This document shows positions 1 through 18,300 of a stretch of 20,000 nucleotides of DNA, in pieces. The translations under genes were made by a program, and so were the position numbers. Origin of the DNA: an uncultured virus (IMG/VR IMGVR_UViG_3300035660_000549). Its lineage: Duplodnaviria; Heunggongvirae; Uroviricota; Caudoviricetes. Every line of letters starts with the position of its first letter. Position 1 is the first letter of the stretch. The DNA is taken from the IMG/VR virus record IMGVR_UViG_3300035660_000549; one strand, written 5' to 3'. The notes below the pieces were generated by a model. It was not told where the DNA came from. It made no database searches and worked only from the letters and a program-made list of their open reading frames with translations.

Positions 1-96
1 AGTACACTTCCAACACCTCCAGGTTCCAGTAGAATCTATATAACCTTCATTAGATCGATGTTTGGGACACTTGAATTCCATCTTCTTTTTCTTCAT
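1..96 (-). CDS. Partial small Zn-finger protein (runs off left edge)
   Basis: Manual translation from ATG at 96: MKKKKMEFKCPKHRSNEGYIDSTGTWRCWKCT..., with CxxH and CxxC. Starts directly after the stop of 97..558. Confidence 0.6.
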   Translation of the reverse strand, partial: MKKKKMEFKCPKHRSNEGYIDSTGTWRCWKCT

Positions 97-1456: not shown

Positions 1457-1461
1457 TACTC

Positions 1462-2613: not shown

Positions 2614-2614
2614 T

Positions 2615-3523
2615 CTAAATACATTCTCCTAAATTTAACCAGTCTTCTTTTGTTTTGTAATCATTGTAAATATACTTGCTTTTTATCTTATCATCTTCAA
2701 AGAACTCTTCCCAAGTTATCCTTCCATTAATAAAATCTAGTTCAAATGATTTCCAGTCAAATAGATTATTACAACGGTTACAATAGGAAAATGAAGGGAA
2801 TGTAAAGTCTGGAGCTTTAAGAGAACCACACTTTATACATTCAGTATTTTTAGAAGCATATTCCTCAAAATGTTTTAGATCAAATAAAACTTCAATATTC
2901 TGACTTCTGTTAGAGTTATCGGATGAAGAAGATGTAATTATACTTGGATCGAAGTTCTTAAGGAATTCTTTTAGAATATCCACATCTAGGGATGACAAAC
3001 ATGCATCACATAGAGGAATATCTCTATATGATTTTTGATTACACCTAGAACATCTATTGTATTTTCTCTCTATATCTATCTCGTGAGAGAATGCTGTTAC
3101 TAGGAAATTAATAAACCTAGTTAGAGTATGTTGATCATACATTATACTAGCATCTGTGTCTATCTCAATAAATATATTAGGATTAGGAAGACATGGAACT
3201 ATATTTAGATCAAATTTCTTAGCTAGTAATCCTAGTTCTCTAGTTAATTGTAAACTTGAAGAAGAGACCCGTATTCCTTTTGCATTTAAATAATCCCAGC
3301 TTTTAAAGAAAGAGATATCTTCAGATACTCCTTCCTGTTTGTAATGAAGTGGTCTTCTAGTGAACTTGCGAAGGAGATATGCTGGAATAAATATGTCTAT
3401 GGATTTAGGAACATTGATGGCTCTAGATCTAATTTTCCCTGGGAGAGATGGGCTCTGTACATATTCTGGAAATACTTTAACAGCTTCTAATACTCCTTCC
3501 TTGATTATTTCTTTGTTTATTAT
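2615..3523 (-). CDS. Hypothetical ~302 aa protein with two C-terminal Zn ribbons; extends the tracked 2615..3142 ORF upstream to a probable ATA start
   Basis: Frame of 2615..3142 stays open to 3523 (INKEIIKEGVLEAVKVFPEY...), filling an otherwise empty 378 bp gap. GGAGGA at 3538-3533. The ATA overlaps the upstream TAA stop. CSRC/CDAC and CIKC/CNRC pairs. Confidence 0.65.
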   Translation of the reverse strand: MINKEIIKEGVLEAVKVFPEYVQSPSLPGKIRSRAINVPKSIDIFIPAYLLRKFTRRPLHYKQEGVSEDISFFKSWDYLNAKGIRVSSSSLQLTRELGLLAKKFDLNIVPCLPNPNIFIEIDTDASIMYDQHTLTRFINFLVTAFSHEIDIERKYNRCSRCNQKSYRDIPLCDACLSSLDVDILKEFLKNFDPSIITSSSSDNSNRSQNIEVLFDLKHFEEYASKNTECIKCGSLKAPDFTFPSFSYCNRCNNLFDWKSFELDFINGRITWEEFFEDDKIKSKYIYNDYKTKEDWLNLGECI

Positions 3524-4866: not shown

Positions 4867-4878
4867 ACTTTATTCCTC

Positions 4879-5100
4879 CTATAAGGACTTAATACTATTC
4901 TTTTTTGATCCCCTGGAATATGGGGAGAGGATCAGAATTACATCTTTACCTTCTAGACCTTTTAATAATCTGATAGTGGTCTTTAGAGTACTTTCTTTAT
5001 CTTTAGTGAACAGAATACAGCCTTCTCTATCTGTGGTCATTGTTATTCCAGTAATCTTACAATATATTTCTACTGGTCTTTCTTCAGACAAACTATTCAT
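4879..5100 (-). CDS. Hypothetical 73 aa protein within the ligase cassette
   Basis: ATG overlaps the end of the ATP-grasp gene; tightly packed before the GCS2 gene. Confidence 0.6.
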   Translation of the reverse strand: MNSLSEERPVEIYCKITGITMTTDREGCILFTKDKESTLKTTIRLLKGLEGKDVILILSPYSRGSKKNSIKSL

Positions 5101-5962
5101 CTCTTCTAATTATACATCTAATTCTAATTGGTAAATTAATCTTGTTTATTCCTTCATTTGATCTCAACCAGGGATAGTCTTCTATCTTAGGTTGATCACC
5201 TAGGATTCCTTCTTTGAATAAGAAATCTTTGATAATAAAGGAATATAACTGTCTTCCAAATTTGTTCAAACGTACTGCTGAGTTCGCTTCTAGAATATAT
5301 GGTACACCTTCTTCAGATACTATTACGTCTATTCCTCCAAAGTTTATTCCTAGAACTTTAGAAGCTTTGATACATTCTTCAATTATTTTCTCTTCTAGAG
5401 GATAATCATGTTCATATATATCTGATAGAATGTATCCATGATCCACATTTCTAATCCAGTATTCTCCTCTAGTTGGTACTTTCTTCTGTATTCTAATAAC
5501 TTCATTGTTGAATAAATGAACTCTATATTCTCTAGTAGAATAGATATACTCTACAAAATAGTCTCCATCCACTCCATTTAGCTGGAGTCTATCATCCACT
5601 CTAATAATGTCTCTTCCCCTACTATGAAATCTTAGTCTGCTCAACACTGGAAATTTATGAGAAGGAATAGTTTCTTTCCTAGTGTAAACTATAGGAGTTC
5701 TAATTCCATTCTCTAAAAGAAACCTAGAACATCTTAGCTTGTCTTTAACTAGGTTTACTACTTTAGAGTTGTTTAATACTATTTTAAATCTCCATTCTCT
5801 TCTAGGACTGGAAGATACTCCATATCTAATCAGACAGTCTCCATTCTCTATCCCAGATAGAGTATTGATAGGGGTAAACCCGGAATATTCAGCTAGTTTT
5901 CTTCCTGTAGGCTTAGAGTAAAGACTAGACTCCATAAATGTTAAGAGATAGATATTTGCCAT
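5093..5962 (-). CDS. RimK/YheCD-like ATP-grasp peptide ligase
   Basis: LIRYG, VLNNS...VKDKL, GIRTP, FPVL, HSRGRDI, YFVEYI, EYRVHLF, WIRN, LGINFGGIDVI, PYILEANSA (intact ExN). Confidence 0.9.
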   Translation of the reverse strand: MANIYLLTFMESSLYSKPTGRKLAEYSGFTPINTLSGIENGDCLIRYGVSSSPRREWRFKIVLNNSKVVNLVKDKLRCSRFLLENGIRTPIVYTRKETIPSHKFPVLSRLRFHSRGRDIIRVDDRLQLNGVDGDYFVEYIYSTREYRVHLFNNEVIRIQKKVPTRGEYWIRNVDHGYILSDIYEHDYPLEEKIIEECIKASKVLGINFGGIDVIVSEEGVPYILEANSAVRLNKFGRQLYSFIIKDFLFKEGILGDQPKIEDYPWLRSNEGINKINLPIRIRCIIRRDE

Positions 5963-6241
5963 TTAGATCTTCCTTTTCTTTATAGAGACCTCTTTCTTAG
6001 TAACAATATCCTCTTGATATGCACAATAATTAGAGAGATAGGAATAACTATCAACTCTTTTCTCTAAGTCTTCTATTTCAGCAGAAGCATTGAATATTCT
6101 ATCTAGGAATAGTGGAAATATTTGTGATAGATCTTTCATAGATTCATTTAAAATCTCTACACATACTTCAGGATCATCTTCTAAGATGTCTTGCAAATCA
6201 TCTAGAAATGTTTCAATTAGTAACTTTATTTTCTCATGCAT
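5963..6241 (-). CDS. Hypothetical acidic helical protein
   Basis: 92 aa ORF, GGAG SD, abuts the ATP-grasp start. Confidence 0.65.
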   Translation of the reverse strand: MHEKIKLLIETFLDDLQDILEDDPEVCVEILNESMKDLSQIFPLFLDRIFNASAEIEDLEKRVDSYSYLSNYCAYQEDIVTKKEVSIKKRKI

Positions 6242-6243
6242 AG

Positions 6244-6654
6244 TTATTCTTCCTTCTTTCCATTCTTCTTTCCTTCCTTAGGATATATGTACCACTTGTC
6301 TTCTATAGAATTCAATCTTAGAACTATACACTCTCCAAACCTTCCAGAGAATTTAATATTCCCATTGAACCCCATCGAAAGGAGAGAGTCTATAAATATC
6401 TCTATACTAGAAGGATTCAACCGCATTATTTCAGATTCAAATAGGAGAATAGAAGGGTCTCTATCTGGTCCTGTAAAAGAATATACTTTCCCTTTGAATG
6501 CCTCCAGTCTTCCTTTTATTTTCTTTTTACAAGCAGGACATCTTTGTTCCTGGATCTCCATATATTTCTTCTCTTTATCTGATTTGATATTTAGAATTGC
6601 CTGGGTTCTCTTACCACAGTAACCACAATCAAATATTTGAAGGTACAATACCAT
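6244..6654 (-). CDS. Hypothetical protein with N-terminal Zn ribbon
   Basis: CGYC...CPAC; GAGG SD. Confidence 0.7.
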   Translation of the reverse strand: MVLYLQIFDCGYCGKRTQAILNIKSDKEKKYMEIQEQRCPACKKKIKGRLEAFKGKVYSFTGPDRDPSILLFESEIMRLNPSSIEIFIDSLLSMGFNGNIKFSGRFGECIVLRLNSIEDKWYIYPKEGKKNGKKEE

Positions 6655-6666
6655 TCTATATTCCTC

Positions 6667-6864
6667 TTATTCACTTAGTCTACATTTTAGAGCTTCTTCT
6701 ATATATGGTTTAGAAATATGAACTTCTTTCTCTTTTATAACTTCTTCAGTTTCCTTAACTTCTTCTTCAATACCAAAGATTTCAAATATTTGTTTATTCT
6801 TCAAAATATTCCCTCTTAGATCTTTCTTCATATTATGAAGGATCTTGAAAGGATGTAAATTCAA
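6667..6864 (-). CDS. Hypothetical 65 aa protein
   Basis: ORF track; fits operon packing. Confidence 0.5.
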   Translation of the reverse strand: MNLHPFKILHNMKKDLRGNILKNKQIFEIFGIEEEVKETEEVIKEKEVHISKPYIEEALKCRLSE

Positions 6865-6867
6865 TTA

Positions 6868-7089
6868 CTAGATCTTAGGAAGTTTATCCTTTATCTTTAC
6901 TATAGTCTGGTTAGGAATAGGAGTGTTACAGTAAGGACATAGAATAATAAATTCTTCTCTAATATCTCTCCTAGGGTTCTCTACAAAATATGTTCCATCT
7001 CGTCTAAGAGTGTATGTACCAATACTATGGTACTCCTCTCTTACCTTATCTAGAGACTTCTTACAGTTTGGACAGATCACTTCTGACAT
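6868..7089 (-). CDS. Small Zn-ribbon protein
   Basis: CPNC...CPYC; archaeal-type AGGTGA SD. Confidence 0.75.
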   Translation of the reverse strand: MSEVICPNCKKSLDKVREEYHSIGTYTLRRDGTYFVENPRRDIREEFIILCPYCNTPIPNQTIVKIKDKLPKI

Positions 7090-7098
7090 ATTATCACC

Positions 7099-7446
7099 TT
7101 AAAGATTCCTATTTGATATGATGATCTTTTTCTTAATCTTATATATCTTTTTACATTTAGGGCATTTAACTAGAAACTGTAAAACTTCTTTTACAAGTTT
7201 AGAAGAAGATATCAATCTATGTGGATTCTCATAGACCTTGTAGATTAAAGGAGAGAAGGTATGTTCACAACTAGGGCATATATTAGAAGATATAGTTGGA
7301 ATATTTCTTCTTCCTTTATCTAAACGATAATCAAATAGTATGCCTATGTCTTCTACTCCTAGTCTGTGTAAATGGAGATGAATGACCTTTAGCTTCTTGG
7401 GTACAAATTCATTACAGACTAGACATCTTTCCTTATACTTAGCCAA
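7099..7446 (-). CDS. Double Zn-finger protein (C2H2-like plus Zn ribbon)
   Basis: CLVC-x12-HLHLH, then CPSC...CPKC; GGAG SD before TTG. Confidence 0.7.
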   Translation of the reverse strand: MAKYKERCLVCNEFVPKKLKVIHLHLHRLGVEDIGILFDYRLDKGRRNIPTISSNICPSCEHTFSPLIYKVYENPHRLISSSKLVKEVLQFLVKCPKCKKIYKIKKKIIISNRNL

Positions 7447-7457
7447 ATACTTCTCTC

Positions 7458-7814
7458 CTACTGGTGTTCACACCTATCACATGGATTACAATCTTCCCCA
7501 CAAGTATCAGTTGCATCTGGGCAATTCTCACATATTACTTCATGTGGAGAACAACCTTCACATGGGTCTGTATCTTCATCTACTCTTTCTTCTTCGAAGC
7601 GATCTCTTATCAAATGGTTATCTAGGAGAAACCCCATTATACTATTTCTCTTGTCTAGGAGTTTCTTATATTTGATTAGAAAGTCTATCAGTTTGATATA
7701 TACCAAATTACTATCATTTGGTATTTCTTCTTTGTTGGTCTCGTCTACTCTTATTACTTTAAGAGATTCAATATTGACCAGAATATATGGATTAAATAAT
7801 TCTAGTTTGGCCAT
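7458..7814 (-). CDS. Hypothetical protein with Cys/acidic-rich C-terminus
   Basis: More likely start is ATG 7814 (MAKLELFNPY), because 7817..7939 encodes a separate small ORF. Tail CEGC..CENC..C...C..CDRC. Confidence 0.65.
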   Translation of the reverse strand: MAKLELFNPYILVNIESLKVIRVDETNKEEIPNDSNLVYIKLIDFLIKYKKLLDKRNSIMGFLLDNHLIRDRFEEERVDEDTDPCEGCSPHEVICENCPDATDTCGEDCNPCDRCEHQ

Positions 7815-7816
7815 AA

Positions 7817-7939
7817 TTATCTTCTCTTCCACCCTGAACAATTCAATTCTGGATTCATTATACACAAGTTAGTAAGAACACAAGTTAGATCTTCATTAAA
7901 TCTACAATTATAACACGTTCTTTCTTTTATTGTCTTCAT
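7817..7939 (-). CDS. 40 aa Cys-rich microprotein (not in ORF track)
   Basis: Manual translation MKTIKERTCYNCRFNEDLTCVLTNLCIMNPELNCSGWKRR*. TGATG overlap with the upstream stop. Confidence 0.6.
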   Translation of the reverse strand: MKTIKERTCYNCRFNEDLTCVLTNLCIMNPELNCSGWKRR

Positions 7940-8157
7940 CAACAACTTCCATGTATTATACAATAATCTAAATTAAGATAATTATTTTTAGTCTCTAGGA
8001 ATGTAGAGATCTCTATTACAGACCCTTCCTCACTTACCGCAACATTACTATAGAAAAGTAATCCTAGATGATCTTCTTTTATTTCTCTAAGTTTCCTTTC
8101 TAGGATGTAATAGGTGTACTCACACCATGCTCTTCTTAGAGTTATATTATCTTTCAT
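7939..8157 (-). CDS. Hypothetical 72 aa protein
   Basis: ORF track; GAGG SD. Confidence 0.65.
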   Translation of the reverse strand: MKDNITLRRAWCEYTYYILERKLREIKEDHLGLLFYSNVAVSEEGSVIEISTFLETKNNYLNLDYCIIHGSC

Positions 8158-8168
8158 ATTTCTTCCTC

Positions 8169-8357
8169 CTAGAACGAATATCGAACTAGGAATGTCCCAC
8201 AGTTATTACAAATCGGTACTTTTCTTGTCTCTAGAATAATTATACTTCCACCTTTGCCTTTCTTGGTTCTTAGAGGGACCTCTTTAGTTGGAATTAGATC
8301 ATCATATTTGATCTTACACTTAGGACATATATAGTAGATATTCTTTTCTTTCTTCAT
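8169..8357 (-). CDS. Small Zn-ribbon protein
   Basis: CPKC...CNNC; AAGGA SD. Confidence 0.7.
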   Translation of the reverse strand: MKKEKNIYYICPKCKIKYDDLIPTKEVPLRTKKGKGGSIIILETRKVPICNNCGTFLVRYSF

Positions 8358-8514
8358 ATTTATTCCTTCTATTAATAATTAATAAATAATTAGGATAATA
8401 GAAAAAAGAGGAGAATAGAGAATACCCTAGCAATCTTTTAGTTTCTGGTAGATTTCTCTAGCCTTTTCTTTAAGATATTTAGAATCGTCTGCTAAACCGA
8501 AACCAAAAGGTACT

Positions 8515-8757
8515 TCAATGGAAGACACTACCATCTTTTAGGAAGACATAACCAGAATATACACCAATTTGTACCACATTTTTTGTCTTGTTTGCTTCTG
8601 TGAGATCTTCGGAGAGACTTTTAATATGTTTAGCTAAAGTTGCTATATCCGATGTAGTAGAAGTGTAAATAGTATATCCACTTTCTAGAGAAATCTTCAA
8701 ACAGTTAGGCTGGGTACATCCATGTTCTTCGATTGTTGCTTTAAATTGCTTAGGCAT
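8515..8757 (-). CDS. Hypothetical 80 aa protein
   Basis: GGGAGG SD; ORF track. Confidence 0.7.
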   Translation of the reverse strand: MPKQFKATIEEHGCTQPNCLKISLESGYTIYTSTTSDIATLAKHIKSLSEDLTEANKTKNVVQIGVYSGYVFLKDGSVFH

Positions 8758-8769
8758 AGTTATTCCTCC

Positions 8770-8994
8770 CTAGCAGTCCTTCTTTATATTATGGAACTTT
8801 CTCTCATGTTCTTCTATTGTTGTACTAAATATCGCTATAGGTCCATAAACAAATGGTATGGTAGAAAAGCATCGATCTGTAACTTCTCTAGATTTGTTAA
8901 GAGGACAATTAGCAGTTGCTGGACAACCACATTGTCCATCTTTCTGACCAGAATCTCTTGTTTGTATATCAACATATTTACAAATGTACCTCAT
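8770..8994 (-). CDS. Small Cys-rich hypothetical protein
   Basis: AGGTG SD; C..CGCP...CP...C. Confidence 0.6.
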   Translation of the reverse strand: MRYICKYVDIQTRDSGQKDGQCGCPATANCPLNKSREVTDRCFSTIPFVYGPIAIFSTTIEEHERKFHNIKKDC

Positions 8995-9054
8995 TCTTTA
9001 CACCTTTGTCTCCAGTACATTTATTACTGGAGATTCCAAAGGATATTTATTCTT

Positions 9055-9291
9055 CTAAGATTTTCGGAGCATCCATAATGAATCAATTTCTTGGCAATAA
9101 CCTTCAGCATATTCATAAATAAAATTTAAATCTTTTCCTAGAATTCTAAGGAATAGAACTCTTTCTAAGACATCATTTAAATATGGTCTAATTCCAATAA
9201 CATATCCTAGAAGTTTCTTCTTTGCCAATGGACAATTTATTACTACAAATGAATTTATTCTAATATGTTTCTTCAAGTTTGTTCTCCTCAT
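9055..9291 (-). CDS. Hypothetical 78 aa protein
   Basis: ORF track; same strand as neighbours. Confidence 0.55.
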   Translation of the reverse strand: MRRTNLKKHIRINSFVVINCPLAKKKLLGYVIGIRPYLNDVLERVLFLRILGKDLNFIYEYAEGYCQEIDSLWMLRKS

Positions 9292-9360
9292 ATCCTAGTA
9301 TATCATTCAATATTATCCAGAAAACTAGCAATGAAATTAGAGTGAGAGTTAAACTGATCA

Positions 9361-9561
9361 TTAAGATCCCCAACCCCAATAATCACTAACTTCTAACTTG
9401 TTATTTCTTAACACTATACTTAAGGCTATGACTTGTAATGGACCAAAATCAATTATTATTTCTACTTTATCATCACTTGTTTCAGCATATATTTTAATTT
9501 TACATGGATCTTTATAGCCTTCTAAGATCTTCTTGAAATCAACTAATTCCCATTTTGGCAT
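9361..9561 (-). CDS. Hypothetical 66 aa protein
   Basis: ORF track; overlaps the end of the upstream ORF. Confidence 0.6.
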   Translation of the reverse strand: MPKWELVDFKKILEGYKDPCKIKIYAETSDDKVEIIIDFGPLQVIALSIVLRNNKLEVSDYWGWGS

Positions 9562-9749
9562 TTTATTTCATCTTCATGTTCTTTCTTTAATTTGTCCCAT
9601 TTCTTTGCTCCAAATAACAAATATCCAAGTCTATCAGTTATTTCAGCTAGGATATGAAAAAACTTAACTAGAAATCTATCATAGAATATTGAGGGTTCAT
9701 ATTTCAACCAGTGTTTGATTTTCCATAATTTATATTTTAGATCAAACAT
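9543..9749 (-). CDS. Hypothetical 68 aa aromatic/basic protein
   Basis: ORF track; GAGG SD. Confidence 0.55.
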   Translation of the reverse strand: MFDLKYKLWKIKHWLKYEPSIFYDRFLVKFFHILAEITDRLGYLLFGAKKWDKLKKEHEDEIKCQNGN

Positions 9750-9906
9750 CTAGGTCTTCCTCTTCCCTAACAATTAGGTGTGAACTTGGGAACCTAAGTT
9801 TCTTTCCTATATGACCACACTCGTTACAACGATAATTAAAAGAATCAAGTACTAATATGTTTATGCTATTGCATTTTGGACATTTTACAACAGTTAATAT
9901 TTTCAT
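9742..9906 (-). CDS. 54 aa Zn-ribbon microprotein (not in ORF track)
   Basis: MKILTVVKCPKCNSINILVLDSFNYRCNECGHIGKKLRFPSSHLIVREEEDLDV*; AGGAG SD. Confidence 0.7.
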   Translation of the reverse strand: MKILTVVKCPKCNSINILVLDSFNYRCNECGHIGKKLRFPSSHLIVREEEDLDV

Positions 9907-9963
9907 ATTTATTCTCCTAGGTTTTCTTATAAAGAATCTAAGATTCTTTTATTTACTAGAAAC

Positions 9964-10137
9964 TTAAGTTTCTTCTAAATCTTTTTCTCTTATGATGGAT
10001 TCTGATATAGAAGAAAGAATAAAAAATATAAAAAATATTAATTGAAAGGAAGTATCTAGATTCTTGCCTACACTATAACCAAAAAGCATGGCACTAAGCG
10101 TCATTAAGGACCGACTAATCAGATATTCTAACTTCAT
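9964..10137 (-). CDS. 57 aa putative membrane microprotein (not in ORF track)
   Basis: MKLEYLISRSLMTLSAMLFGYSVGKNLDTSFQLIFFIFFILSSISESIIREKDLEET*; AGGAG SD; two hydrophobic stretches. Confidence 0.6.
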   Translation of the reverse strand: MKLEYLISRSLMTLSAMLFGYSVGKNLDTSFQLIFFIFFILSSISESIIREKDLEET

Positions 10138-10245
10138 TTTTAAGAACTCCTTTTCTTTCTTAACCTCTTTAACTATTCTCTAAAATATAGAAAAACTTTT
10201 CATCAAATAATTTTCCTAATTTTCTTTTAAGTCTTATTTGGTTTT

Positions 10246-10419
10246 TCATTTCTTATTAACTCCTTTTCCTGAACTACCAAAAGTTAATAGAATTTTAGAC
10301 CATGCTTTCCTTGCTTTTCTAATCTCTGGATTATTCCTTCCTTCATAAGCGGGTGCTAACAAGTCTATGAAATTATCCACAATTCTAAAGTCCTCTAGAC
10401 TTGCCTTTTCTTTTCTCAA
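10246..10419 (-). CDS. 57 aa basic microprotein (not in ORF track)
   Basis: TTG start after AGTGAT: MRKEKASLEDFRIVDNFIDLLAPAYEGRNNPEIRKARKAWSKILLTFGSSGKGVNKK*. Confidence 0.5.
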   Translation of the reverse strand: MRKEKASLEDFRIVDNFIDLLAPAYEGRNNPEIRKARKAWSKILLTFGSSGKGVNKK

Positions 10420-10446
10420 GAATTATCACTTTCTTATTTCTTTTTC

Positions 10447-10893
10447 TTAGATGTTAAAAGGATATAGTTTCTGGAGTTCCTGGTGAGATATTTCTTCGTT
10501 CCTTATTCGTTCTGCTTCTTTCTTCAAAGATTGAATTGCTACTTCATAGTTTAGGAAGTCACTTTCTTCAAATGATATCTTCTGTATACCACATACTACT
10601 TTGTTCTTAGTAAATAGTTGCCATTGAGAGAGAGAAGTCCTGTTCAGGTCTGCATAGAGTTTTAGTACACTAAGTTTCAGGTCTCTTAGGTTTATTATAT
10701 TCTTTATTTCTTTTATCTTCGACATATTAAATCCTTCCTTTATATCTTTTAATTCTAATGATAAACAATAAAGACAATCTTCCAAACTTGGTTTATTATC
10801 CCAGACTTTAGTTTCTTCATTGAAGAGACAAGGACATTCTATAAAATGACATATCCATATCTTTTCTTTATCTCTTCCTATTTCTTCTGTCAT
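10447..10893 (-). CDS. Hypothetical 148 aa protein
   Basis: ORF track; N-terminal Cys cluster (CHFIECPC...CLYC). Confidence 0.65.
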   Translation of the reverse strand: MTEEIGRDKEKIWICHFIECPCLFNEETKVWDNKPSLEDCLYCLSLELKDIKEGFNMSKIKEIKNIINLRDLKLSVLKLYADLNRTSLSQWQLFTKNKVVCGIQKISFEESDFLNYEVAIQSLKKEAERIRNEEISHQELQKLYPFNI

Positions 10894-11007
10894 TTCTTCT
10901 TCAACTTTTCTTTTCTTAAACCTTTTATTTAGAGAAATAAAGAATACTTATGTATAGCGAAAAGGGTCTTTTCTTTAATAAAAGACTAAGTTTTCTTTAC
11001 TCTATCT

Positions 11008-11019
11008 CTTAAAAGGTTT
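11008..11019 (-). promoter_or_regulatory. Putative archaeal BRE-TATA promoter
   Basis: Minus strand AAACCTTTTAAG, upstream of 10447..10893. Confidence 0.35.
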
Positions 11020-11464
11020 AATGTGATATGTAAGAACCATGTAACTCATAACTCTGATTAAGTTTTTCTATTAGCTTTTTTACTATTTCCTTATTCTTAT
11101 AAATGTCTAATAGATTAATAAGAGCAAGATTAAGTAGTGCTATTTCCATATTACTATAAGAGAAAATAGATTTGGTTTTAGGTAAGTATAATTTCTTAGG
11201 TTCTAAAACCTTTAACCAATTATCACACCTACCAATATAGTTAATCCTCTTAGGGTTGGGGTATAATGTCTTTAAATTCCAACATAGCTTTAAACCTTTA
11301 CACTTAGAGATTAGACATAATGTAAAGTTAGGATATTTCTCGTTTATCTGTTCTCTAAGTTTTCTCTTAGTGTAGCGTTTAGGGTAATCTCTGATATTGA
11401 AATTTATATCAGCTAATAATTCCTCTAAGGAAAAGGTTTCGTTATACTCTATTTCCTTAACCAT
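11018..11464 (-). CDS. Hypothetical 148 aa protein
   Basis: AGGTG SD; ORF track. Confidence 0.7.
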   Translation of the reverse strand: MVKEIEYNETFSLEELLADINFNIRDYPKRYTKRKLREQINEKYPNFTLCLISKCKGLKLCWNLKTLYPNPKRINYIGRCDNWLKVLEPKKLYLPKTKSIFSYSNMEIALLNLALINLLDIYKNKEIVKKLIEKLNQSYELHGSYISH

Positions 11465-11528
11465 AAGACTTACACCTTATAATTTCATATTAAAAAAAGA
11501 GGATATTGAGTTATGTTTCGTGTATTGT

Positions 11529-11798
11529 TTACTCTTTAGCCTTAGGCTTTTTGGGTGTAGTTTGTAGTTTGTCTAATCTGAACAGTAGAGCAGTTAATCT
11601 CTTAGCTATTAAAGAACCACTGCCAGTCTTAAATGTTGAACATATCTTGTTCCATCCATCAATATTTAGTTGTATGTCTTTTCCGTCTATGTTAATCTTT
11701 TTCTCATCAAATATTATGTAGTGTATCGGGTTCTCTTTTCGGTTCTTAGTTGTTGCGATTATGTCCTTAGTCATGCTTTCAATGTCTAATTCTGACAT
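11529..11798 (-). CDS. Hypothetical 89 aa basic protein
   Basis: AGGGGA SD, own putative promoter, downstream oligo-T tract near 11492-11498. Confidence 0.7.
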   Translation of the reverse strand: MSELDIESMTKDIIATTKNRKENPIHYIIFDEKKINIDGKDIQLNIDGWNKICSTFKTGSGSLIAKRLTALLFRLDKLQTTPKKPKAKE

Positions 11799-11843
11799 TT
11801 TTATTTATCCCCTTTTGCGTAATTACTCATGCACAAAACACAC

Positions 11844-11855
11844 ATATAAAGGTTT
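11844..11855 (-). promoter_or_regulatory. Putative archaeal BRE-TATA promoter
   Basis: Minus strand AAACCTTTATAT, ~45 nt upstream of ATG 11798. Confidence 0.55.
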
Positions 11856-11992
11856 GTTTTTCCTTAGTGTTTTTTATCCCTTATGTGCATACAAAAACCA
11901 TCAGAACACCAAAACATAAGGCTTAAGGGACAGATAAAAAAAAGAGTATAATATAGTATAGTTTCTTTATGATGTCCTATGGTATAGTTTCT

Positions 11993-12235
11993 CTATGGTT
12001 TCCTGTTTGTTGATTTCCCTATCCATGTCTTTTCTATCCTGCACAAGTCAATAGTTTGTAGGCTATCATCAATTTCTAATATCCTTTCCGTAAACTCTAC
12101 TGCATTCTTAGGGTTGTGGTAGAATATTGTCTGTGTGTCTAACGGTTTAGAATTGTCTAAGTTTCTCTTGATGATAAGTACATGGCTGAATGGTGTATTT
12201 ACCATGTTTTTGATATTTACTTTTTGCTTAGGCAT
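11993..12235 (-). CDS. Hypothetical 80 aa protein
   Basis: AGGTTGA SD, putative TATA box at 12272-12283, downstream oligo-T tract at 11936-11943. Confidence 0.7.
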   Translation of the reverse strand: MPKQKVNIKNMVNTPFSHVLIIKRNLDNSKPLDTQTIFYHNPKNAVEFTERILEIDDSLQTIDLCRIEKTWIGKSTNRKP

Positions 12236-12311
12236 TTTATCAACCTTAAGGGTTATTCTATACTGTTTGAGTATTTATATTTTGCTAAGTTTGAATATAT
12301 AAAAATGGGTG

Positions 12312-12335
12312 TTGCTATCTTACACAAGATAGCAA
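12312..12335 (-). terminator. Perfect 10 bp stem-loop immediately after the DDE gene stop
   Basis: TTGCTATCTT-ACAC-AAGATAGCAA, followed on the minus strand by CACCCATTTTT. Confidence 0.45.
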
Positions 12336-12336
12336 T

Positions 12337-13077
12337 TTAGTGTTTAAGTTTGATTATTGTTTTGCATAGGATTATTTCAGTCTTCAGTAAATCTCTATAT
12401 AGCTTTATTAATTCTATATGATAGTTATGGTTTAATACCTCATCTATATAGACATTTAGGAAACTTATCAATTTATCTAAGTTTGCATTATTAGGTAATC
12501 TTTCAACAATATTGTAGAATTGACTTTTGAATAATCCTATTTGTCTTTCAGCATTAGAGTTATATGGGTAATCCTTACTCTTTTTAACTACACATACTTT
12601 TATGTTAAACTCTTGTTCTAATTGTAACCATTCATTAAATAATCTATCAGCACGAATAATCTTTAAGTTGTTACCATATTGTTGGATACACTTAATCAGT
12701 AAATCTCTTATGATGGATTTATTCTCTTGTATCTTACCATTATAAAACTTGAACACTACTCTATTTAATGGCTTGTTGTATGCTATTGCTAATAGTATTT
12801 TCTTATATGTTCTCTTATGCTTATTTGCCTTATCAATACTTGTCTTAGTCAATAAGCTAAAGTCAATGAATGTATCACATTCTTTAACTAAGTCAATATT
12901 TCTTATATTGAATGTATGTTCATTGGGCATATCTCCTTTAAAGAGATTATTGCTTTTAATGGTTCTAATAGTTACATAGGAATACTTACCATTAAAGAGT
13001 TTATATGCCAAATCTTCTCCATAACTTAATTCCTTACGTCTAAACTCTAACTGTTCAATTTCGTTTAAGCTTTCCAT
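12337..13077 (-). CDS. DDE integrase/transposase-core (rve-like, IS3/IS481-type) protein
   Basis: HTH-like SYG..LAYKL...YSYVTIRTI...NL; D1 in TFIDF; D2 in IIRAD; E in PYNSNAERQIGLFK (D-x32-E-x6-K, compare P..NG.aER....lK). GGGTGTGAT SD. Confidence 0.65.
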   Translation of the reverse strand: MESLNEIEQLEFRRKELSYGEDLAYKLFNGKYSYVTIRTIKSNNLFKGDMPNEHTFNIRNIDLVKECDTFIDFSLLTKTSIDKANKHKRTYKKILLAIAYNKPLNRVVFKFYNGKIQENKSIIRDLLIKCIQQYGNNLKIIRADRLFNEWLQLEQEFNIKVCVVKKSKDYPYNSNAERQIGLFKSQFYNIVERLPNNANLDKLISFLNVYIDEVLNHNYHIELIKLYRDLLKTEIILCKTIIKLKH

Positions 13078-13110
13078 ATTGAATCACACCCTTTAAGGTG
13101 TATGTAAGAG

Positions 13111-13122
13111 TTTATAAGGTTT
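13111..13122 (-). promoter_or_regulatory. Putative archaeal BRE-TATA promoter of the DDE gene
   Basis: Minus strand AAACCTTATAAA, ~33 nt upstream of ATG 13077. Confidence 0.55.
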
Positions 13123-13139
13123 ATGTCATTCTAATCCTA

Positions 13140-13186
13140 TATTAAGACTTAATACTCCATTCTTCTATGTCTTAAGACTTAATACT
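13140..13186. repeat. 15 bp direct repeat of a palindromic motif in the divergent intergenic region
   Basis: TTAAGACTTAATACT at 13142-13156 and 13172-13186 (30 bp period). TATTAAG-A-CTTAATA (13140-13154) is an interrupted palindrome. Confidence 0.8.
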
Positions 13187-13331
13187 AGTTAAACGAATAG
13201 GAATAAATAAGATAGAAAAATAATATGGAGGATTAGAAGACTATATATTGTGTGTATTAATACTGGGGTCCTCCCTGGTATGCGATATGTTTATTAAGAT
13301 AGTCTATGGAGTTTATCTAGGGTTACTGAAT

Positions 13332-13853
13332 ATGAAGACCTGTAAACTATGTTTATCTCCTAATAGAGTGGAATATGAAGAGATGAGGTTCAAGAAGAAT
13401 AAGTCTATTAAAGAGATATGGACCTATGCTTCTTCTGTTAAAGGAGAGAATATTAACTACTATGTATTCCAGAGACACTTCTATAAGATGATGGATGGTC
13501 TGGATGCTGTACATAAATCTTCTAAACTAAGGAATGATATTATAGAAGAAGAGATAAAGAAAGACATAGAGATCTCCCAGAGGCTTAGAAGGAACCTAGA
13601 GATATGTGCAGACAATATAGAGAAGTATGCTAAGAGAGATGATCTAACTGTAGAGGAAGAGAAATCTTTACTAGATTTTATAGGGAAGACTTCTCTAATA
13701 ATAGATGAACTATTGAAATGGTCTAAGCAACTAGACTTCAAACCTAAGAGTGAAGACATATTTGAAAAGATCCTTTATTGTATACATGACTTTCCAGAAC
13801 ATTTAATAGAGAAGTTCAAAGAGAGATGGACATCTTATGGCTCTTCAAGTTGA
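13332..13853 (+). CDS. terS: Probable terminase small subunit
   Basis: Directly upstream of and overlapping terL. Likely start MKTCKLC at ATG 13332; CxxC...RH N-terminus then helical region. Confidence 0.6.
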   Translation: MKTCKLCLSPNRVEYEEMRFKKNKSIKEIWTYASSVKGENINYYVFQRHFYKMMDGLDAVHKSSKLRNDIIEEEIKKDIEISQRLRRNLEICADNIEKYAKRDDLTVEEEKSLLDFIGKTSLIIDELLKWSKQLDFKPKSEDIFEKILYCIHDFPEHLIEKFKERWTSYGSSS

Positions 13854-15126
13854 TGAAGTAAAAAAGGCCTTAACTTTCCTATCTTGGTATAAGAATCCTT
13901 CTTCTTTCTATAGAGATATCTTCAATGAAGAGCCATATCCTTACCAGGCTAAAGTATTAAATACAATAAGGGAATATCCTAAGAGAACTATGCTTATGTC
14001 TGCTTCTGGAACTGGCAAGACTAAACTTCTAGCTTGTATTACTCTTCTCCTAGGAGTAGTATTTCCTAAGTTTCTAAAGACCCCTCTTTCTATAATTATA
14101 ATATCTGGAAGTAGAGACCAGGCTAGGAATCTTTACGAATATGTTAGATTAGCATTTAAAGATTCCAATATCCTAGCACAGGAAGTAGAAGGAGAACCTT
14201 TAATGAGTATTACTAGACTCCATGATAGGTCTGTAATCCTAGCTGTACCCAATTCTCTTAAGGCTATTCAAGGTAAACATTGTGATATTGTGATCATCGA
14301 TGAGGCAGTTCTAGCTGGAGACTTTATTATTAGAGATGCTTATAGAATAGTGTCGCAGTCTAAGAATGATATGATACTATTGTCTGGTACTCCTATGGAT
14401 GAACCTGGAGGAGAGTTGTTTGTAGAGATGTGGGAGGATGAAAAGAAATATCCAGAGTGGATCAGACATCACTGGACGGCCAGAGAGTGCCCTAGGATTA
14501 GTTTAGACAAATACACTGAAGCCAGTAAGGATCTCCCAGAGGATATGTTTTCGATCTTTTGGCAGGGCAAGCCATATCCTAAACTAGGTTCCCTAATTCC
14601 TATAGACAAACTTAAAGAATCTTCTAGAGACACTCCCCATTTAGAATATGACCCCAATGGAGGAAGAGTAGTTGCTGGGATCGACTGGGGTTGGAGAGAT
14701 TTTACAGCTTTAGTTATTCTACAATATAACAAAGAAGAAAACTTAGTGAAAATATTATTTTCTGATCAGTGGAATCTAGAACAATTTGAAGATCTACATA
14801 ATAGAATATCGAAGATATGTAAAGATTATAAGGTCTCTATTATATATGCTGATGCAGAAGATGTAGGAGAGAACCAGAGATTAGAAGCTAGGGGCCTGAA
14901 TGTAGAACCTATAGGATTCAACCAGAACAAGATTATAATGCAGACTAGACTCAAACTAATGTTCCACCAGAAGAAGATAAAGATTCCAGAAGACTCTACT
15001 GAATTACTAACAGAACTTAGGAAGTATAACTGGGATACTGCTAAGGGAGAGGACCTAGTTGATGCTCTAATGCTAGCATTGTATAAGGAAGAAGGAGAAC
15101 CTAGCTATTTCTATAAAGTAGTCTGA
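13837..15126 (+). CDS. terL: Terminase large subunit
   Basis: PYPYQ (Q motif), SASGTGKT (Walker A), IVIIDEA (Walker B), LSGTP (motif III), GIDWG and EDLVDAL (RNase H-like nuclease). Confidence 0.95.
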   Translation: MALQVDEVKKALTFLSWYKNPSSFYRDIFNEEPYPYQAKVLNTIREYPKRTMLMSASGTGKTKLLACITLLLGVVFPKFLKTPLSIIIISGSRDQARNLYEYVRLAFKDSNILAQEVEGEPLMSITRLHDRSVILAVPNSLKAIQGKHCDIVIIDEAVLAGDFIIRDAYRIVSQSKNDMILLSGTPMDEPGGELFVEMWEDEKKYPEWIRHHWTARECPRISLDKYTEASKDLPEDMFSIFWQGKPYPKLGSLIPIDKLKESSRDTPHLEYDPNGGRVVAGIDWGWRDFTALVILQYNKEENLVKILFSDQWNLEQFEDLHNRISKICKDYKVSIIYADAEDVGENQRLEARGLNVEPIGFNQNKIIMQTRLKLMFHQKKIKIPEDSTELLTELRKYNWDTAKGEDLVDALMLALYKEEGEPSYFYKVV

Positions 15127-15323
15127 GATTCTTTTAGGAAACTTAGAATATTTTTAAGACCATAATATAAAGAAAATACTCCATTACATATTAACATAGA
15201 TCCATCGATGAATCCAGCTCCAGTAAAAACTTGTTCAAAAGTTAAAACTATAACCTTTAATCCAATTCCAATAGAGAATGAACCAAGAAGAGAAATTAAA
15301 AAGAACCAGAAAAGTTTATCCAA
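15111..15323 (-). CDS. Small two-TM membrane protein
   Basis: 70 aa with two hydrophobic segments; overlaps the tail gene stop and converges on terL. Confidence 0.55.
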   Translation of the reverse strand: MDKLFWFFLISLLGSFSIGIGLKVIVLTFEQVFTGAGFIDGSMLICNGVFSLYYGLKNILSFLKESQTTL

Positions 15324-18300
15324 AATAACTTCCAGTTATAACTCTAATATATCTCTCATACATATCTAAACTTGATAAACATGAAGCTCCATATCTTAGT
15401 GAAATTGTATGAATACCAGTTGTTAAGATAGTATCTTCAATCATTGTAATATTATCACATCTATCATAATTATATTTCTCTTTTATGAAAATATGATTTA
15501 AAGATGTTCCATCTACATATATCGACCAATCATAATATTGAGGAGGAGGACTAAGAAAATGAATAGAAGCATTGCATCCAGAAAATATTATTGCTTTTGC
15601 ATTGTAATCTAAAGTACATGTTAGAAAGATAGCTGTACCAGCAGCTACAGTTGAATTAATTGTATTTATTTCCTTACTATAGTAGAAGTCAGGCATCCAT
15701 CTGTCCCTAGCAGTAGTATTGTCTACAAAGCTGGTAAGCTGGTTGCCTTTAACAATCATACAATCATCAAAGCAGAATGTGCCTCCACCTCTAGAATATA
15801 TACTGGGTTTAATGAATGGCTTAGCAGGATCAACAGTAAAGGTTCCATATGCTTGTGTCCAGGTAGAAATAGTAAACACTCCTCCAGTATTTACTTCTCC
15901 TCCATATACCCCTCCAGTTCCAAGTGCATCAGAAGCCTTAACATACCAGAAAGAAATGCCAGGGCTTGTTCCAGGTACTGTCCCCTTCCACCATATAGAT
16001 AGAATAAATGAAGATGCTCCAGCCATATTAATATATGAAGGATAGTCCTCATAGGTCTCAACAGTATTAGTTGTAGCAACTCTATAACATCTACTCCCAG
16101 AATGACTTTCAACAGTAGAACTTGTTCCTAGTCCACTTCCCCATCTTCCATATTCAAATCCAGGATTGACTATCTCATTCCAGCCTATAGGAGGCTTAAC
16201 TAGTCTATCATAACTAATAGTTAATGTATTGATATTATTGTTCTGGATCACATTGTTGCTTGCAATAGAGATCAAAGATAATGTAGATATTGAACTTGAG
16301 CCAATCACTAAGTTTCCTGTATTAGTGATGTTAGTAAAGTTGAGTGTACTATTCTGGAACAACACATTATCTATTGTGCCAGCATTCAAGTCTATATTAT
16401 TAATAGTTGCAGAAGATATTACTAGATTACTAATACTTCCTATGTTGAATCCAACAGAATTACCAGATAGAGTTCCTACTTGCATATTTGTTATTGTTCC
16501 AATATTAAATTTAATTGAATTGCCAGTAATGGTTCCTGCCTGGAAGTTAGTTAATGTTCCTATATTGAAACTTAGACTATTACCAAATATAGTTCCAGCC
16601 TGGAAAGATGTTATTGTACCTATATTAAATCCAATAGAGTTTCCTGATATGGTTCCAGTCTGGAAACTAGTTATGGTTCCTATATTAAATGATATACTAT
16701 TTCCAGATATGGTACCAGCCTGAAAGTTAGTGACTGTACCAATATTAAATTGTACAGAGTTTCCTGATATAGTTCCAGCCATAAATGTAGTAATTGTTCC
16801 AATGTTAAATTGAATACTGTTCCCTGAGATAGTGCCAGATAAAAAGTTAGTAATTGTTCCAACATTATAGTTTATGCTTGTACCATAAATATTTACTATT
16901 GTTCCAGCATTGGCAACTAGAGTACCATTCACATTTGCATATAGACAAACTAGATTATTGACATTGGCTATAGTACCAATATTAGCAGTAATAACATTTA
17001 GATTGTTTATAGTGTTAGATATTGTACCAACTGTCAAGTTTCCAATATTGCCAGCATCGATATTAAAATTGACTATCTGGTTACCAGATACATAATGAGA
17101 TCTCTCTCTGAATCCCATATATACAGATTTAATTTCATCTTCTGAAAGGGCTCTATTATAGATTCTAACTTCATCAATAGTACCTTTAAAGAAATAACTA
17201 GAAATATATCCTATCTTCAATGGAAAAGTACCCGAGTCAATGTTACCAGTTGCACTCTCTCCAATATACTGTACTCCATCATAGTAACCTACTACATATG
17301 TACCATCATAAGTCATAGCAACATGATGCCATTCATTAATAGGTAACACTGGGAAAGCAATAGGATCATAAGTATAAACATCATGTATTGTTCCTCCAAT
17401 ATAGATTCCTAGACATTGTGCTCCACTAGAATCAACCCACCAGAAGTACTGATTCTCTTTACCAATAGGTCTTGGCCAGGTACTTGCTGCAATTGTTCCT
17501 CTTTTAACCCATGCCATCATAGTTATTCTAGTAACATTCAAGGTACTAGTATTAGGTACCTGGACATAATCATTTATACCATCAAAATACAGAGCATTAC
17601 CAAACTTTCCTGTAGTAAAAGATGCTCCAGATATTGATCCATTATTATCATTGCTACTATAATCCTTAGCATCATCATCAAAGGGCATATCAAGGACCAG
17701 ACCATAGCCAGAAGTTGGTAATACAAAGTTTATCTTGTCAATATTAATGGCTAGATCAGCAATGTTTCCTGCTCCTAATGAGAATCCACCAGATAGTGCA
17801 TTAATACTGGCATTAATAACATTCAAGTTCTGTATAGAATTTATTGTACTTATAATTGCTGTTATAGCATTAAGATTAGTTAGAGTATTAGATATAACTC
17901 CTATACTGGCATTAGTAGCAAATAGATTAGTAAGAGTTAGAGTACCAATTCCTCCAATAGAATTGGACCATAGATTCGTTATAGTTGCAGTCCCAATACT
18001 TCCAAGTGTATTAGCATTTAATATTCCTACACTAAGAGAGTTCACTCCAGAAATAGTGTTAGAGGTTAAGATTCCTATAGTAGCTGTCCCTATACTTCCT
18101 AGAACACTAGCATTAACTATTCCAGCTGTAAATGTTGCTATACTACTTATTTGACTTATGTTTGCCACATTAGCATTTAGAACTCCTACTGTATTGATGG
18201 TACCTACACTCATATAACCAGCAGATATAGATCCAACAGTACCGATAGTACCAATATTAGCTGTTCCAATAGTGTTTATTACTCCGATAGAATTGATCAG

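Follow-up and report, generated by a model that had tools for sequence, protein, structure and literature searches.

In this study, which was based on a window of 20,000 nucleotides (the whole stretch of DNA that was analysed) from the uncultured virus IMGVR_UViG_3300035660_000549 and on a comparison with its relatives, we found that a block of short genes beside the small terminase subunit gene (terS) is free of the palindromes CTAG and GATC. The depletion is palindrome-specific, exceeds what base composition or the choice of codons would give and is driven by selection; moreover, the palindrome-free zone is a trait of the family and not an isolated island. The best reading, to which we give about an even chance, is that the avoidance of restriction sites is confined to an early and probably first-entering gene block next to terS.

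CTAG, which has 145 copies across the window, does not occur at all in 10399-13184 (2.8 kb), a zone that is bounded by copies at 10395 on the left and 13185 on the right. GATC, with 85 copies in the window, is absent from 9744-13570, the bounding copies being at 9740 and 13571. Both zones follow from the site positions and were supported by gap statistics and codon shuffles. At the density of the flanks, 23.5 CTAG and 13.8 GATC would be expected in 10399-13184, which confirms the island described in an earlier sequence-only reading as well as its estimate of about 25 CTAG. That reading had also pointed out that CTTAG and CTAAG stay common inside the island, and 15 of 45 and 8 of 35 window copies, respectively, indeed lie there. 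CCWGG is likewise absent between 10479 and 13274. The right edge had been placed at the divergent intergenic repeats before terS, and it falls on the second of two copies of a 15-nt repeat (13142-13156 and 13172-13186). This divergent spacer also has two near-palindromic TTAAG-N-CTTAA sites (13138-13186) with a spacing of 30 nt, which look like operators; in a related strain, one 30-nt unit is missing.

The gap statistics and the shuffles show that the loss is more than an effect of composition. The CTAG gap equals 20.2 times the mean spacing, which is the most extreme value among all of the 4-mers with at least 40 copies, and the GATC gap equals 16.3 times. Local trinucleotide composition predicts 9.8 CTAG and 5.2 GATC inside the island, where none of either was observed, and the two words rank first and second for under-representation among the 188 island 4-mers for which at least 3 copies are expected. 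When synonymous codons were shuffled 1000 times within the five island ORFs, there was a mean of 4.4 CTAG and 4.8 GATC, and zero was reached in 0.5% (P 0.005) and 0.2% (P 0.002) of the shuffles, respectively. The loss of GTAC, of which two copies were observed in these ORFs, was not significant in the same shuffles. In the genes of the left flank, 80 CTAG were observed compared to 60.5 in synonymous shuffles, and 80 was reached in none of the 1000. Outside the zone, CTAG and GATC are normal or in excess, and even the full window, island included, has more CTAG than expected. The composition of the island is shifted as well, with a GC content of 29% compared to 33% elsewhere and a different choice of Leu codons (TTA 0.48 vs 0.24 and CTA 0.21 vs 0.40 in the island and the rest, respectively). 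Long gaps in the island were seen for the non-palindromic words GAAG/CTTC, CTCC/GGAG and CCAG/CTGG as well, and 2 of 21 control segments differ as much from the rest in their 4-mer signature as the island does.

The island genes are on the minus strand. The left CTAG boundary (10395) lies within an ORF of 57 aa (10246-10419). The five island ORFs comprise one of 148 aa (10447-10893), for which family, locus and atlas searches found no relatives; another of 148 aa (11018-11464), which has relatives inside the GATC-free zones of loci L021 and L026 as well as a match of 84% identity to a protein labelled 'viral metagenome'; one of 89 aa (11529-11798), whose one relative is in the zone region of L013 (6663-6938, 34% identity); one of 80 aa (11993-12235), without a family and without a relative in the related loci; and the first gene of the leftward block (12337-13077, 246 aa). 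A 26-nt tandem repeat in two copies (11952-12004) lies between two of these genes. Four of the five ORFs, all but 12337-13077, belong to no known family in Pfam and PHROG searches, and the same collections gave no match to known anti-restriction or T5 pre-early proteins. The spacers between the island genes are 27-194 nt long and contain TATA-like stretches that may be promoters, while most spacers in the left flank are of at most 12 nt. On the plus strand follow terS (13248-13853), which was recognised by its position and by its conservation in 49 of 77 related loci but has no Pfam or PHROG match, and the large terminase subunit gene TerL (13837-15126, Terminase_6C); the true start of terS is likely the ATG at 13332. 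No methyltransferase is encoded in the window, and no tRNA or Rfam family was found in it. A scan for sigma-70 promoters and terminators, a model that is unsuited to an archaeal host, gave no more matches than shuffled sequences, and no conserved motif, GC-rich or other, was found upstream of terS among 34 sequences.

The protein encoded by the first gene of the block is predicted to combine an N-terminal helix-turn-helix with a DDE (RNase H-like) integrase/transposase fold. Its family is rare (about 10 members); the AlphaFold2 model was built on a 10-sequence alignment and reached a pLDDT of 79, and folding of the single sequence was poor (pLDDT 41). A Foldseek search of the PDB with the model gave 40 matches at E <= 0.001, the best of which were retroviral integrase cores, IstA and TnsB with a probability of 1.00. 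D72, D144 and E177 are invariant in the 10 sequences. In the model, D72 is on E69-77, D144 is just past E140-143 and E177 starts H174-188, so that the putative catalytic D, D and E would be where the DDE fold expects them, i.e., on strand 1, after strand 4 and on the next helix. K184 was read from the window protein alone. Language-model matches at 0.84 are a weak lead. The likeness to IstA of IS21 and to TnsB lies in the fold, the positions of D...D...E and the N-terminal helix-turn-helix; in contrast to these transposases, the window protein has no match to the Pfam rve profile even at E <= 10 and sits beside the terminase. An insertion sequence or transposon was considered for this gene, but no convincing terminal inverted repeats or target duplication were found beside it, and around the island the search for terminal inverted or flanking direct repeats likewise gave no convincing pair. 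The gene for the DDE-fold protein adjoins the terminase genes in two distant viruses.

Relatives were collected through TerL, for which a single-protein scan of viral contigs found nothing and an alignment scan gave 19 loci; the gap survey covered 37 sequences, namely the window, eight IMG/VR genomes and 28 loci. In the relatives, zones of 2-12 kb abut the terS-TerL module and lack GATC, GTAC, CTAG, AGCT, CATG, TGCA, CCWGG or GCWGC. Across the 37 sequences, palindromes make up 410 of the 4425 eligible word classes (9%), but 25 of the 74 gaps with log10 P < -4 (34%) are palindromic, as are 13 of the 37 top-ranked words. Of these 25 gaps, 17 are no more than 1 kb away from the module, although in most loci long gaps are necessarily near TerL because the loci were cut around it. 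In L013, the gaps are at 6877-9390 (CTAG), 5264-8573 (GATC) and 6058-8151 (GTAC), with TerL at 10001; L026 has a GATC gap at 1338-9388; and L042 has no GATC in 1-8995 compared to 40 in the remaining 12 kb. In the 73-kb genome G014, AGCT, CATG, CTAG and TGCA are missing over 8-12 kb, and three of the four gaps stop within 240 nt of terS, while the TGCA gap stops 2.9 kb upstream. Its zone also has one CCWGG where 16.2 are expected and no GCWGC where 12.3 are expected, and the L026 zone has two GCWGC compared to 17.7 expected.

The zones share an architecture of runs of small ORFs, mostly on the strand opposite to terS and transcribed away from it. The coding nucleotides on the minus and plus strands are 2653 and 158 in the window, 6674 and 620 in L026, 7417 and 161 in L042 and 6821 and 209 in L050. 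The genes themselves are not conserved between zones: three of the five window island ORFs have no relative among the 77 loci, and 105 of 110 zone ORFs from seven relatives belong to no Pfam family. The check proposed in the sequence-only reading, depletion at a matching position despite unrelated genes, came out positive, although the position is not universal. The zone is downstream of TerL in G006, L017, L071, L073 and L070, the main zone of G004 is about 12 kb from the module, and no zone was found in L028, L024, L003, L047, L072, G001, G008, G011 and G012. The pairs L071/L073 and L059/L060 seem to be closely related and do not count as independent cases. A test with fixed 3-kb segments gave similar fractions of empty palindromes downstream (6 of 229) and upstream (7 of 308) of TerL, but it is insensitive because AT-only palindromes dominate the sums, and long zones escaped a test for empty windows in which an eligibility threshold was applied. 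In some relatives, the loss is genome-wide (no GATC in the 63.8 kb of G003 and five GTAC in the 92 kb of G012). Several relatives encode N6/N4 methyltransferases, and a CTAG-free stretch upstream of TerL in G003 encodes several N6/N4 DNA methyltransferase domains, which we count in favour of the best reading; the Dam-type family PF02086 had no match in five relatives.

The concern that the island is an assembly chimera was settled by an independent contig from the source run (77,017 nt), which covers the whole window at 40,461-60,460 with zero differences. Contigs of related strains bridge 12.07-15.1 kb, and in strains of about 95% identity, which come from three further studies, the segment 12.07-13.26 kb is contiguous with terS. 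All contigs cross 13.1-13.3 kb; the question of the termini was viewed here through assembled Logan contigs, which hold no starts, ends or local depth, and the stretches of the window that lack cover in runs X3-X5 are uninformative. The 'terminal repeats' of 40-123 nt in the relatives have the size of assembler overlaps. A side observation is that large metagenome contigs, the records behind L024, L039, L047 and L070, end 0.85-2.6 kb upstream of TerL. As for the host, the sole pointers are two relatives that were placed in archaeal MAGs, and the virus is probably an archaeal tailed virus. The Verdandiviruses, tailed viruses of Asgard archaea, were considered as kin, and passages of a preprint on them (10.1101/2021.07.29.453957) gave no evidence in either direction.

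From where the palindrome-specific loss lies, from how it recurs in the family and from the layout of the genes, we infer that restriction was the selective agent, that the DNA of the block enters first and that the block encodes a protective function. Selection would have purged short palindromes that are cut by type II restriction enzymes of the host, CTAG and GATC here and other sets in the zones of the relatives, and the island would form the beginning, on the terS side, of a leftward block of early-type genes. In the most economical scheme, which is that of T5 and T7-like phages, packaging would begin near terS, and the block, being packaged last, would be the first to leave the capsid; it would be transcribed from the end inwards, and its products would then shield the DNA that follows. 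Since the rest of the genome keeps its sites, even in excess, it must be protected otherwise. The sequence-only reading had already proposed a first-injected leader region with anti-defence genes; its depletion is real and palindrome-specific, its short ORFs do diverge from terS and the pattern recurs in relatives, so this interpretation holds in part, with first entry and the anti-defence role being putative.

Comparable patterns are known from cultured viruses. According to one study (PMC10644984), T5-like phages resist restriction-modification systems unless sites fall in the first-step-transfer region, and in Tequintavirus and Epseptimavirus this region also carries small, mostly unknown genes and has to be site-free while the rest may carry sites. 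The TerL of the window is distantly related to that of T5-like phages, which it matched among cultured phages (E = 1e-14, 24.6% identity), and in the T5-like phage phiR2-01 terS is 3.6 kb from the terminal repeat containing the pre-early genes, i.e., a block is likewise a few kb from terS-TerL. That terminal repeat shows no loss of 4-nt palindromes, only a general shift in composition, and as a control it is therefore uninformative for hosts with 6-nt enzymes. The T5 feature comprises a long terminal repeat, a two-step transfer and an injection stop signal, whereas the window is known from contigs alone. Moreover, the island has no homologues, in Pfam or PHROG, of 5'-deoxyribonucleotidase or of the proteins to which the phiR2-01 annotation gives DNA transfer and DNA binding roles, it loses palindromes of 4-5 nt, and its host is probably archaeal. 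In T7-like phages (Autographiviridae), as described in PMC12455610, restriction motifs matter only in the leading, first-entering, variable region with anti-defence genes. Transcription there runs from the end inwards, as is proposed for the block. Unlike these phages, the window has neither a virus RNA polymerase nor an Ocr-like gene, and its lost words resemble type II palindromes rather than a type I motif. The haloarchaeal tailed viruses of the HF1 group avoid CTAG, GATC, AGCT, TGCA and CATG, a loss that is ascribed to host restriction systems (PMC7230728); it is genome-wide there, whereas here it is sharply bounded, with the motifs normal or in excess elsewhere.

Several other explanations have to be weighed against ordered entry. 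The same architecture and site loss would be expected if the block were expressed early without entering first, in a kinetic race in which a cut there would abolish a function needed later to prevent or mend restriction damage elsewhere. The assemblies of the relatives are circular, with overlaps of only 40-123 nt, in keeping with permuted genomes that lack fixed ends, and some of their zones are found downstream of TerL or 12 kb off. However, the rest of the window has about 130 CTAG and 85 GATC, and an unprotected genome with so many sites would be cut almost at once, so partial avoidance would pay little unless entry is ordered; the sharp boundary at terS also fits a physical landmark, and we consider the race without first entry unlikely. 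Avoidance of methylation marks instead of cuts has only a slim chance in our view. Here, the virus or its host would methylate CTAG and GATC, and early promoters or genes would dodge methyl-dependent nucleases or methyl-sensitive regulation. The methyltransferases of several relatives and the excess of both words outside the zone agree with it, and methyl-GATC-dependent restriction in Haloferax, described in PMC7230728, offers a precedent, but a methyl-dependent nuclease would also cut the rest of the genome, the window encodes no methyltransferase, and the combined loss in G014 of AGCT, CATG, CTAG, TGCA, CCWGG and GCWGC fits several enzymes better than one mark.

It is also conceivable, but distinctly unlikely, that the island is an acquired or mobile segment, brought in with the DDE integrase-like gene at its edge from a donor whose whole genome is poor in CTAG and GATC through avoidance. 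Its lower GC content and Leu codon choice would agree with such an origin, as would the genome-wide losses in G003 (GATC) and G012 (GTAC) and the zones of L026, L021, G014 and G006, whose deviation from the rest is larger than that of all control segments. On the other hand, the L042 zone lacks GATC and GTAC although its non-palindromic 4-mer signature matches that of control segments, which indicates loss in place and not foreign origin. Many relatives are depleted at that position with unrelated genes and different palindromes, the repeats that a mobile segment might carry were not found, and CTAG and GATC keep ranks 1 and 2 after correcting for island composition. A recent horizontal acquisition, the alternative that had been named in the sequence-only reading, is unlikely: the block is present in the strains of about 95% identity from the three other studies, and blastn found no match for it in 50,697 phage and 72,556 plasmid records. 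Finally, chance or the composition of an AT-rich stretch with many Lys, Asn and Ile codons is scarcely credible; non-palindromic GC-containing words do vanish in the island too, but the Markov and codon-shuffle controls oppose this explanation, as does the recurrence in relatives whose zones exceed the rest in GC (L042, L050, L061, L038 and L060).

On the preferred reading, restriction-site avoidance in a first-entering early block, a logic known from T5 and T7-like phages would operate in an uncultivated, probably archaeal, tailed virus. To our knowledge, there is no information on how archaeal tailed viruses order the delivery of their DNA, and hardly any anti-restriction proteins have been described from archaea. 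A more far-reaching proposal, which is possible but doubtful, is that this probably archaeal lineage delivers its genome in order, by a two-step transfer or by transcription-coupled entry, after the manner of T5 or T7. The zone would then mark the stretch that is exposed before protection, its 2-12 kb would be the size of the first step, the family-less ORFs would be a pool of archaeal anti-restriction and takeover proteins, and the DDE-fold protein could act on the genome ends. Statistics of site avoidance over whole genomes can overlook strong regional avoidance, as is illustrated by the overall excess of CTAG in the window. A sharply bounded zone free of several palindromes beside the terminase is a signature that can be read directly from a genome. 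If it marks the first-exposed DNA, it would allow uncultivated virus genomes to be oriented, would point to counter-defence genes and would reveal, through the lost palindromes, the restriction specificities that each virus meets in nature.

In this virus, there is good support for selection that acts against short palindromes only in one early-type gene block, which begins at the divergent spacer beside terS. On recount, all of the coordinates that the sequence-only reading had given for the CTAG and GATC gaps were correct. CTAG occurs 145 times in the window, an approximately 2.4-fold excess over the 59 expected at zero order, and is absent from 10399-13184 (the island), a gap more extreme than that of any other 4-mer there; none of the 85 GATC copies falls within 9744-13570. 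The trinucleotide content of the island predicts 9.8 CTAG and 5.2 GATC, with none observed of either, and these were the two most under-represented of the 188 testable 4-mers in the island. When the synonymous codons of the five island ORFs were shuffled (n = 1000), the mean was 4.4 CTAG and 4.8 GATC, and zero copies were obtained in 0.5% and 0.2% of the shuffles, respectively. The two GTAC copies in the island were not significantly low after codon correction, and CCWGG is missing from the window between 10479 and 13274. The composition of the island is shifted (lower GC, the leucine codon TTA rather than CTA), which explains the GAAG/CTTC, CTCC/GGAG and CCAG/CTGG gaps that accompany the palindrome loss, but does not account for the loss of CTAG and GATC. 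In the left-flank genes (97-10137), there were 80 CTAG compared with the 60.5 predicted from codons, 58 of which were a CTA codon followed by G. As for recent horizontal acquisition, the alternative named by the sequence-only reading, the non-palindromic 4-mer signature of the island was on the high side, with two of the 21 control segments being equally different, and a blastn search of the island against phage and plasmid records returned no match.

The assembly across this region was supported by independent contigs, all of which cross the island-terS junction. A separate contig from the probable source run (same sample, different assembler) spans the whole window with zero differences, and strains that are approximately 95% identical to the window were found in three further sediment studies. 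Related-strain contigs bridge 12275-13966 (sequencing run X4) and 12069-13259 together with 13280-15124 (run X5). In two strains, the right-edge CTAG is abolished by an extra T after 13185. In the X5 strain, 20 GC-rich nucleotides at 13259-13280, with GGWCC and CCWGG inside, are swapped for 409 other letters, a finding that favours the ATG at 13332 as the start codon of terS. Among the relatives, four large contigs (57-121 kb; behind loci L024, L039, L047 and L070) stop 0.85-2.6 kb upstream of TerL; the L047 contig, which is the same record as genome G004, has a 123-nt end overlap, and its end is therefore probably arbitrary.

The source is an uncultivated tailed virus of sediment, probably with an archaeon as the host, judging from a TerL relative labelled as coming from a Thorarchaeota MAG, a genomic relative on a Thermoprotei MAG contig and a TerL match in an Altiarchaeum virus. 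The 67 TerL relatives in a large protein collection were nearly all metagenome proteins. Against 50,697 phage records, all TerL matches were below 60% identity, the best coverage being that of the Altiarchaeum virus and the lowest E-value among the matches listed (1e-14) that of T5-like phages. Many TerL relatives (proteins P0007, P0008, P0012, P0014, P0029, P0031 and P0036; loci L013, L039, L051 and L071-L073) are 727-746 aa long with a split match; together with the LAGLIDADG and intein-splicing domains of P0012, this indicates that inteins are common in this clade, the TerL of the window being intein-free.

The virus contig is approximately 77 kb long, and the GC content of the window is 32.7%, with CpG nearly missing (0-11 per kb; no GCGC or CGCG). 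Genes run leftward from 13077 as far as the window start and include several zinc-ribbon proteins; the island genes are separated by spacers of 27-194 nt that contain TATA-like stretches, whereas the genes further left are packed tightly. A minus-strand cluster at 1462-5962 looks like a virus-borne amide-bond or peptide-ligation module, comprising a class II glutamine amidotransferase (1462-2613), a 175-aa ORF, a protein of 441 aa that weakly matches GCS2-type ligases (3520-4845) and, at 5093-5962, a RimK-like ATP-grasp enzyme (PHROG 2599, E = 3e-31). Rightward of the island come terS (13248-13853, probably starting at 13332) and TerL (13837-15126, Terminase_6C), followed by a minus-strand fibre gene (15316-19911, 1531 aa) with a Laminin_G_3 domain at residues 777-928 and approximately six tandem 60-nt (20-aa) repeats at 16437-16867.

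The block opens with ORF 12337-13077 (246 aa), which had no Pfam or PHROG match and whose product is a predicted helix-turn-helix protein with a DDE recombinase fold. Nine relatives were found by exhaustive HMMER search and eight by profile search, and D72, D144 and E177 are invariant in the family alignment, along with other positions; in the window protein, a lysine (K184) lies seven residues past E177. In the model that was built from 10 sequences (pLDDT 79), the order is beta1-2-3/alpha/beta4/alpha/beta5/alpha, with one of the three acidic residues on strand 1, one just past strand 4 and one where the following helix begins. The fold assignment rests on this placement, on the top Foldseek matches, which were retroviral integrase cores, IstA and TnsB (probability 1.00, E from 5e-5), and on N-terminal helix-turn-helix matches in a distant family member. 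No terminal inverted repeats were found around the ORF or the island. A 24%-identical 246-aa homologue lies at L146:5986-6726, in another virus (107 kb) from this TerL family, 670 nt past the 3' end of TerL, whose frame is interrupted there. Between the ORF and terS are two near-palindromic TTAAG-N-CTTAA sites, 30 nt apart; one 30-nt unit of this spacer is missing in a related strain.

Site loss is a family trait that extends beyond the window. TerL-based scans yielded 77 metagenome and 19 IMG/VR loci, and eight IMG/VR genomes were examined whole. In palindrome maps drawn in 500-nt and 1-kb bins, zones without one or several short palindromes adjoin the terminase genes in relatives, and such depletion was present in many of them despite non-conserved gene content. 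L013, whose TerL (at 10001) is 58% identical, has gaps of CTAG (6877-9390), GATC (5264-8573) and GTAC (6058-8151), and L026 has a GATC gap at 1338-9388. In L021, L042, L050 and L061, GATC is missing over the first 5.7-9.6 kb of the locus, as far as terS or into it, as is GTAC in the L042 zone; shorter zones occur in L054, L049, L060, L038, L059, L063, L039, L014 and L034. The complete genome G014 (73 kb, 49% GC) lacks AGCT at 53291-61536, CATG at 49079-61006, CTAG at 50516-60919 and TGCA at 49579-58273, upstream of terS at 61155. Moreover, the five-letter palindromes CCWGG, GCWGC, GGWCC and GTSAC are depleted in several zones. In a gap statistic run on 37 sequences, palindromes, which make up 410 of the 4425 eligible word classes, supplied 25 of the 74 gaps that passed log10 P < -4, as well as 13 of the 37 top-ranked words.

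Of the 25 palindromic gaps, 17 were no more than 1 kb from the terS-TerL module, compared with 20 of the 49 non-palindromic ones, although long gaps are necessarily near TerL in most loci because the loci were cut around it; whole genomes therefore weigh more in judging zone position. Three of the eight had significant palindromic zones, two of them adjoining the module (upstream of terS in G014, 254 nt after TerL in G006) and that of G004 lying approximately 12 kb off. Zones also lie downstream of TerL in L017, L071, L073 and L070, as in G006; L071 and L073, and likewise L059 and L060, are probably kin with shared features. The maps and the gap statistic showed no zone in L028, L024, L003, L047, L072, G001, G008, G011 and G012. 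In a fixed 3-kb test, empty palindromes were equally frequent downstream (6/229) and upstream (7/308), whereas empty non-palindromes were far rarer (3/2310 and 8/3122, respectively).

The zones consist of successive small ORFs encoded on the opposite strand to terS and, judged by sequence comparison, their gene content is not conserved. ORF 11018-11464 has relatives that lie within the L021 and L026 zones, ORF 11529-11798 has one adjoining the zone of L013, and the other three of the five island ORFs have none among the 77 loci. No Pfam family (E <= 1e-4) was assigned to 105 of the 110 zone ORFs from seven relatives; those with one were a MoxR-type AAA ATPase, a DUF2201/VWA protein and one zf-PARP protein. 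The MoxR-type ATPase recurs in long zones of distant relatives (L026:1865-4266, L115:12212-15384 in G014, L042:917-2041), joined in L026 and G014 by a DUF2201 metallopeptidase/VWA protein, the ATPase partner in L026 being assumed from its position and having no Pfam match. Zone GC is not consistently lower than that of the remainder and is higher in L042, L050, L061, L038 and L060; the non-palindromic 4-mer signature is ordinary in L042, L013 and L050 and distinct in L026, L021, G014 and G006. In G003, several N6/N4 DNA methyltransferase domains are encoded by a 938-aa ORF and its neighbours (60.3-63.8 kb and 0.5-1.0 kb) in a CTAG-free stretch across the contig junction, upstream of TerL; by these domain matches, this is one case of a zone visibly carrying an anti-restriction function. 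PF01555 had no match in either complete genome with multi-palindrome zones (G014 and G004) and matched in the GATC-rich, zone-free G001 and G008, two genomes against two being too few to lean on. The content of 4-nt palindromes differs wildly among the relatives: G003 has no GATC in 63.8 kb, G012 has five GTAC in 92 kb, GGCC is absent from G006, G008, G011 and G012, G001 and G008 have 9-12 GATC per kb, and G006 and G008 have approximately 12 AGCT per kb, about three times the expectation.

The sequence-only reading had seen the island as a candidate first-injected, restriction-avoiding genome end with genes for putative anti-defence or takeover proteins. Its restriction-avoiding part has gained ground: the loss is palindrome-specific and goes beyond composition and codons, which makes anti-restriction site loss very likely. 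That the block physically enters first as a genome end is plausible by analogy, although every contig runs across the junction with terS. In T5-like phages, restriction is described as effective only with sites in the first-step-transfer region (PMC10644984), and in T7-like phages only leading-region motifs are reported to count (PMC12455610); by this logic, sites would be harmful only in the DNA that enters first, and the block alone would be purged. The block resembles these systems in adjoining terS and being transcribed away from it, and the TerL of the window is distantly akin to those of T5-like phages, in one of which, phiR2-01, terS and the repeat with the pre-early genes are 3.6 kb apart. 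HF1-group archaeal tailed viruses are described as avoiding the same motifs, an avoidance attributed to the restriction systems of their hosts (PMC7230728), but their loss is genome-wide, whereas that of the window is regional, in one block. A search of the open-access literature returned no account of zones like these for archaeal viruses. The zones represent a regional, multi-palindrome form of the principle known from T5 and T7-like phages, a form for which that literature offered no precedent in this lineage.
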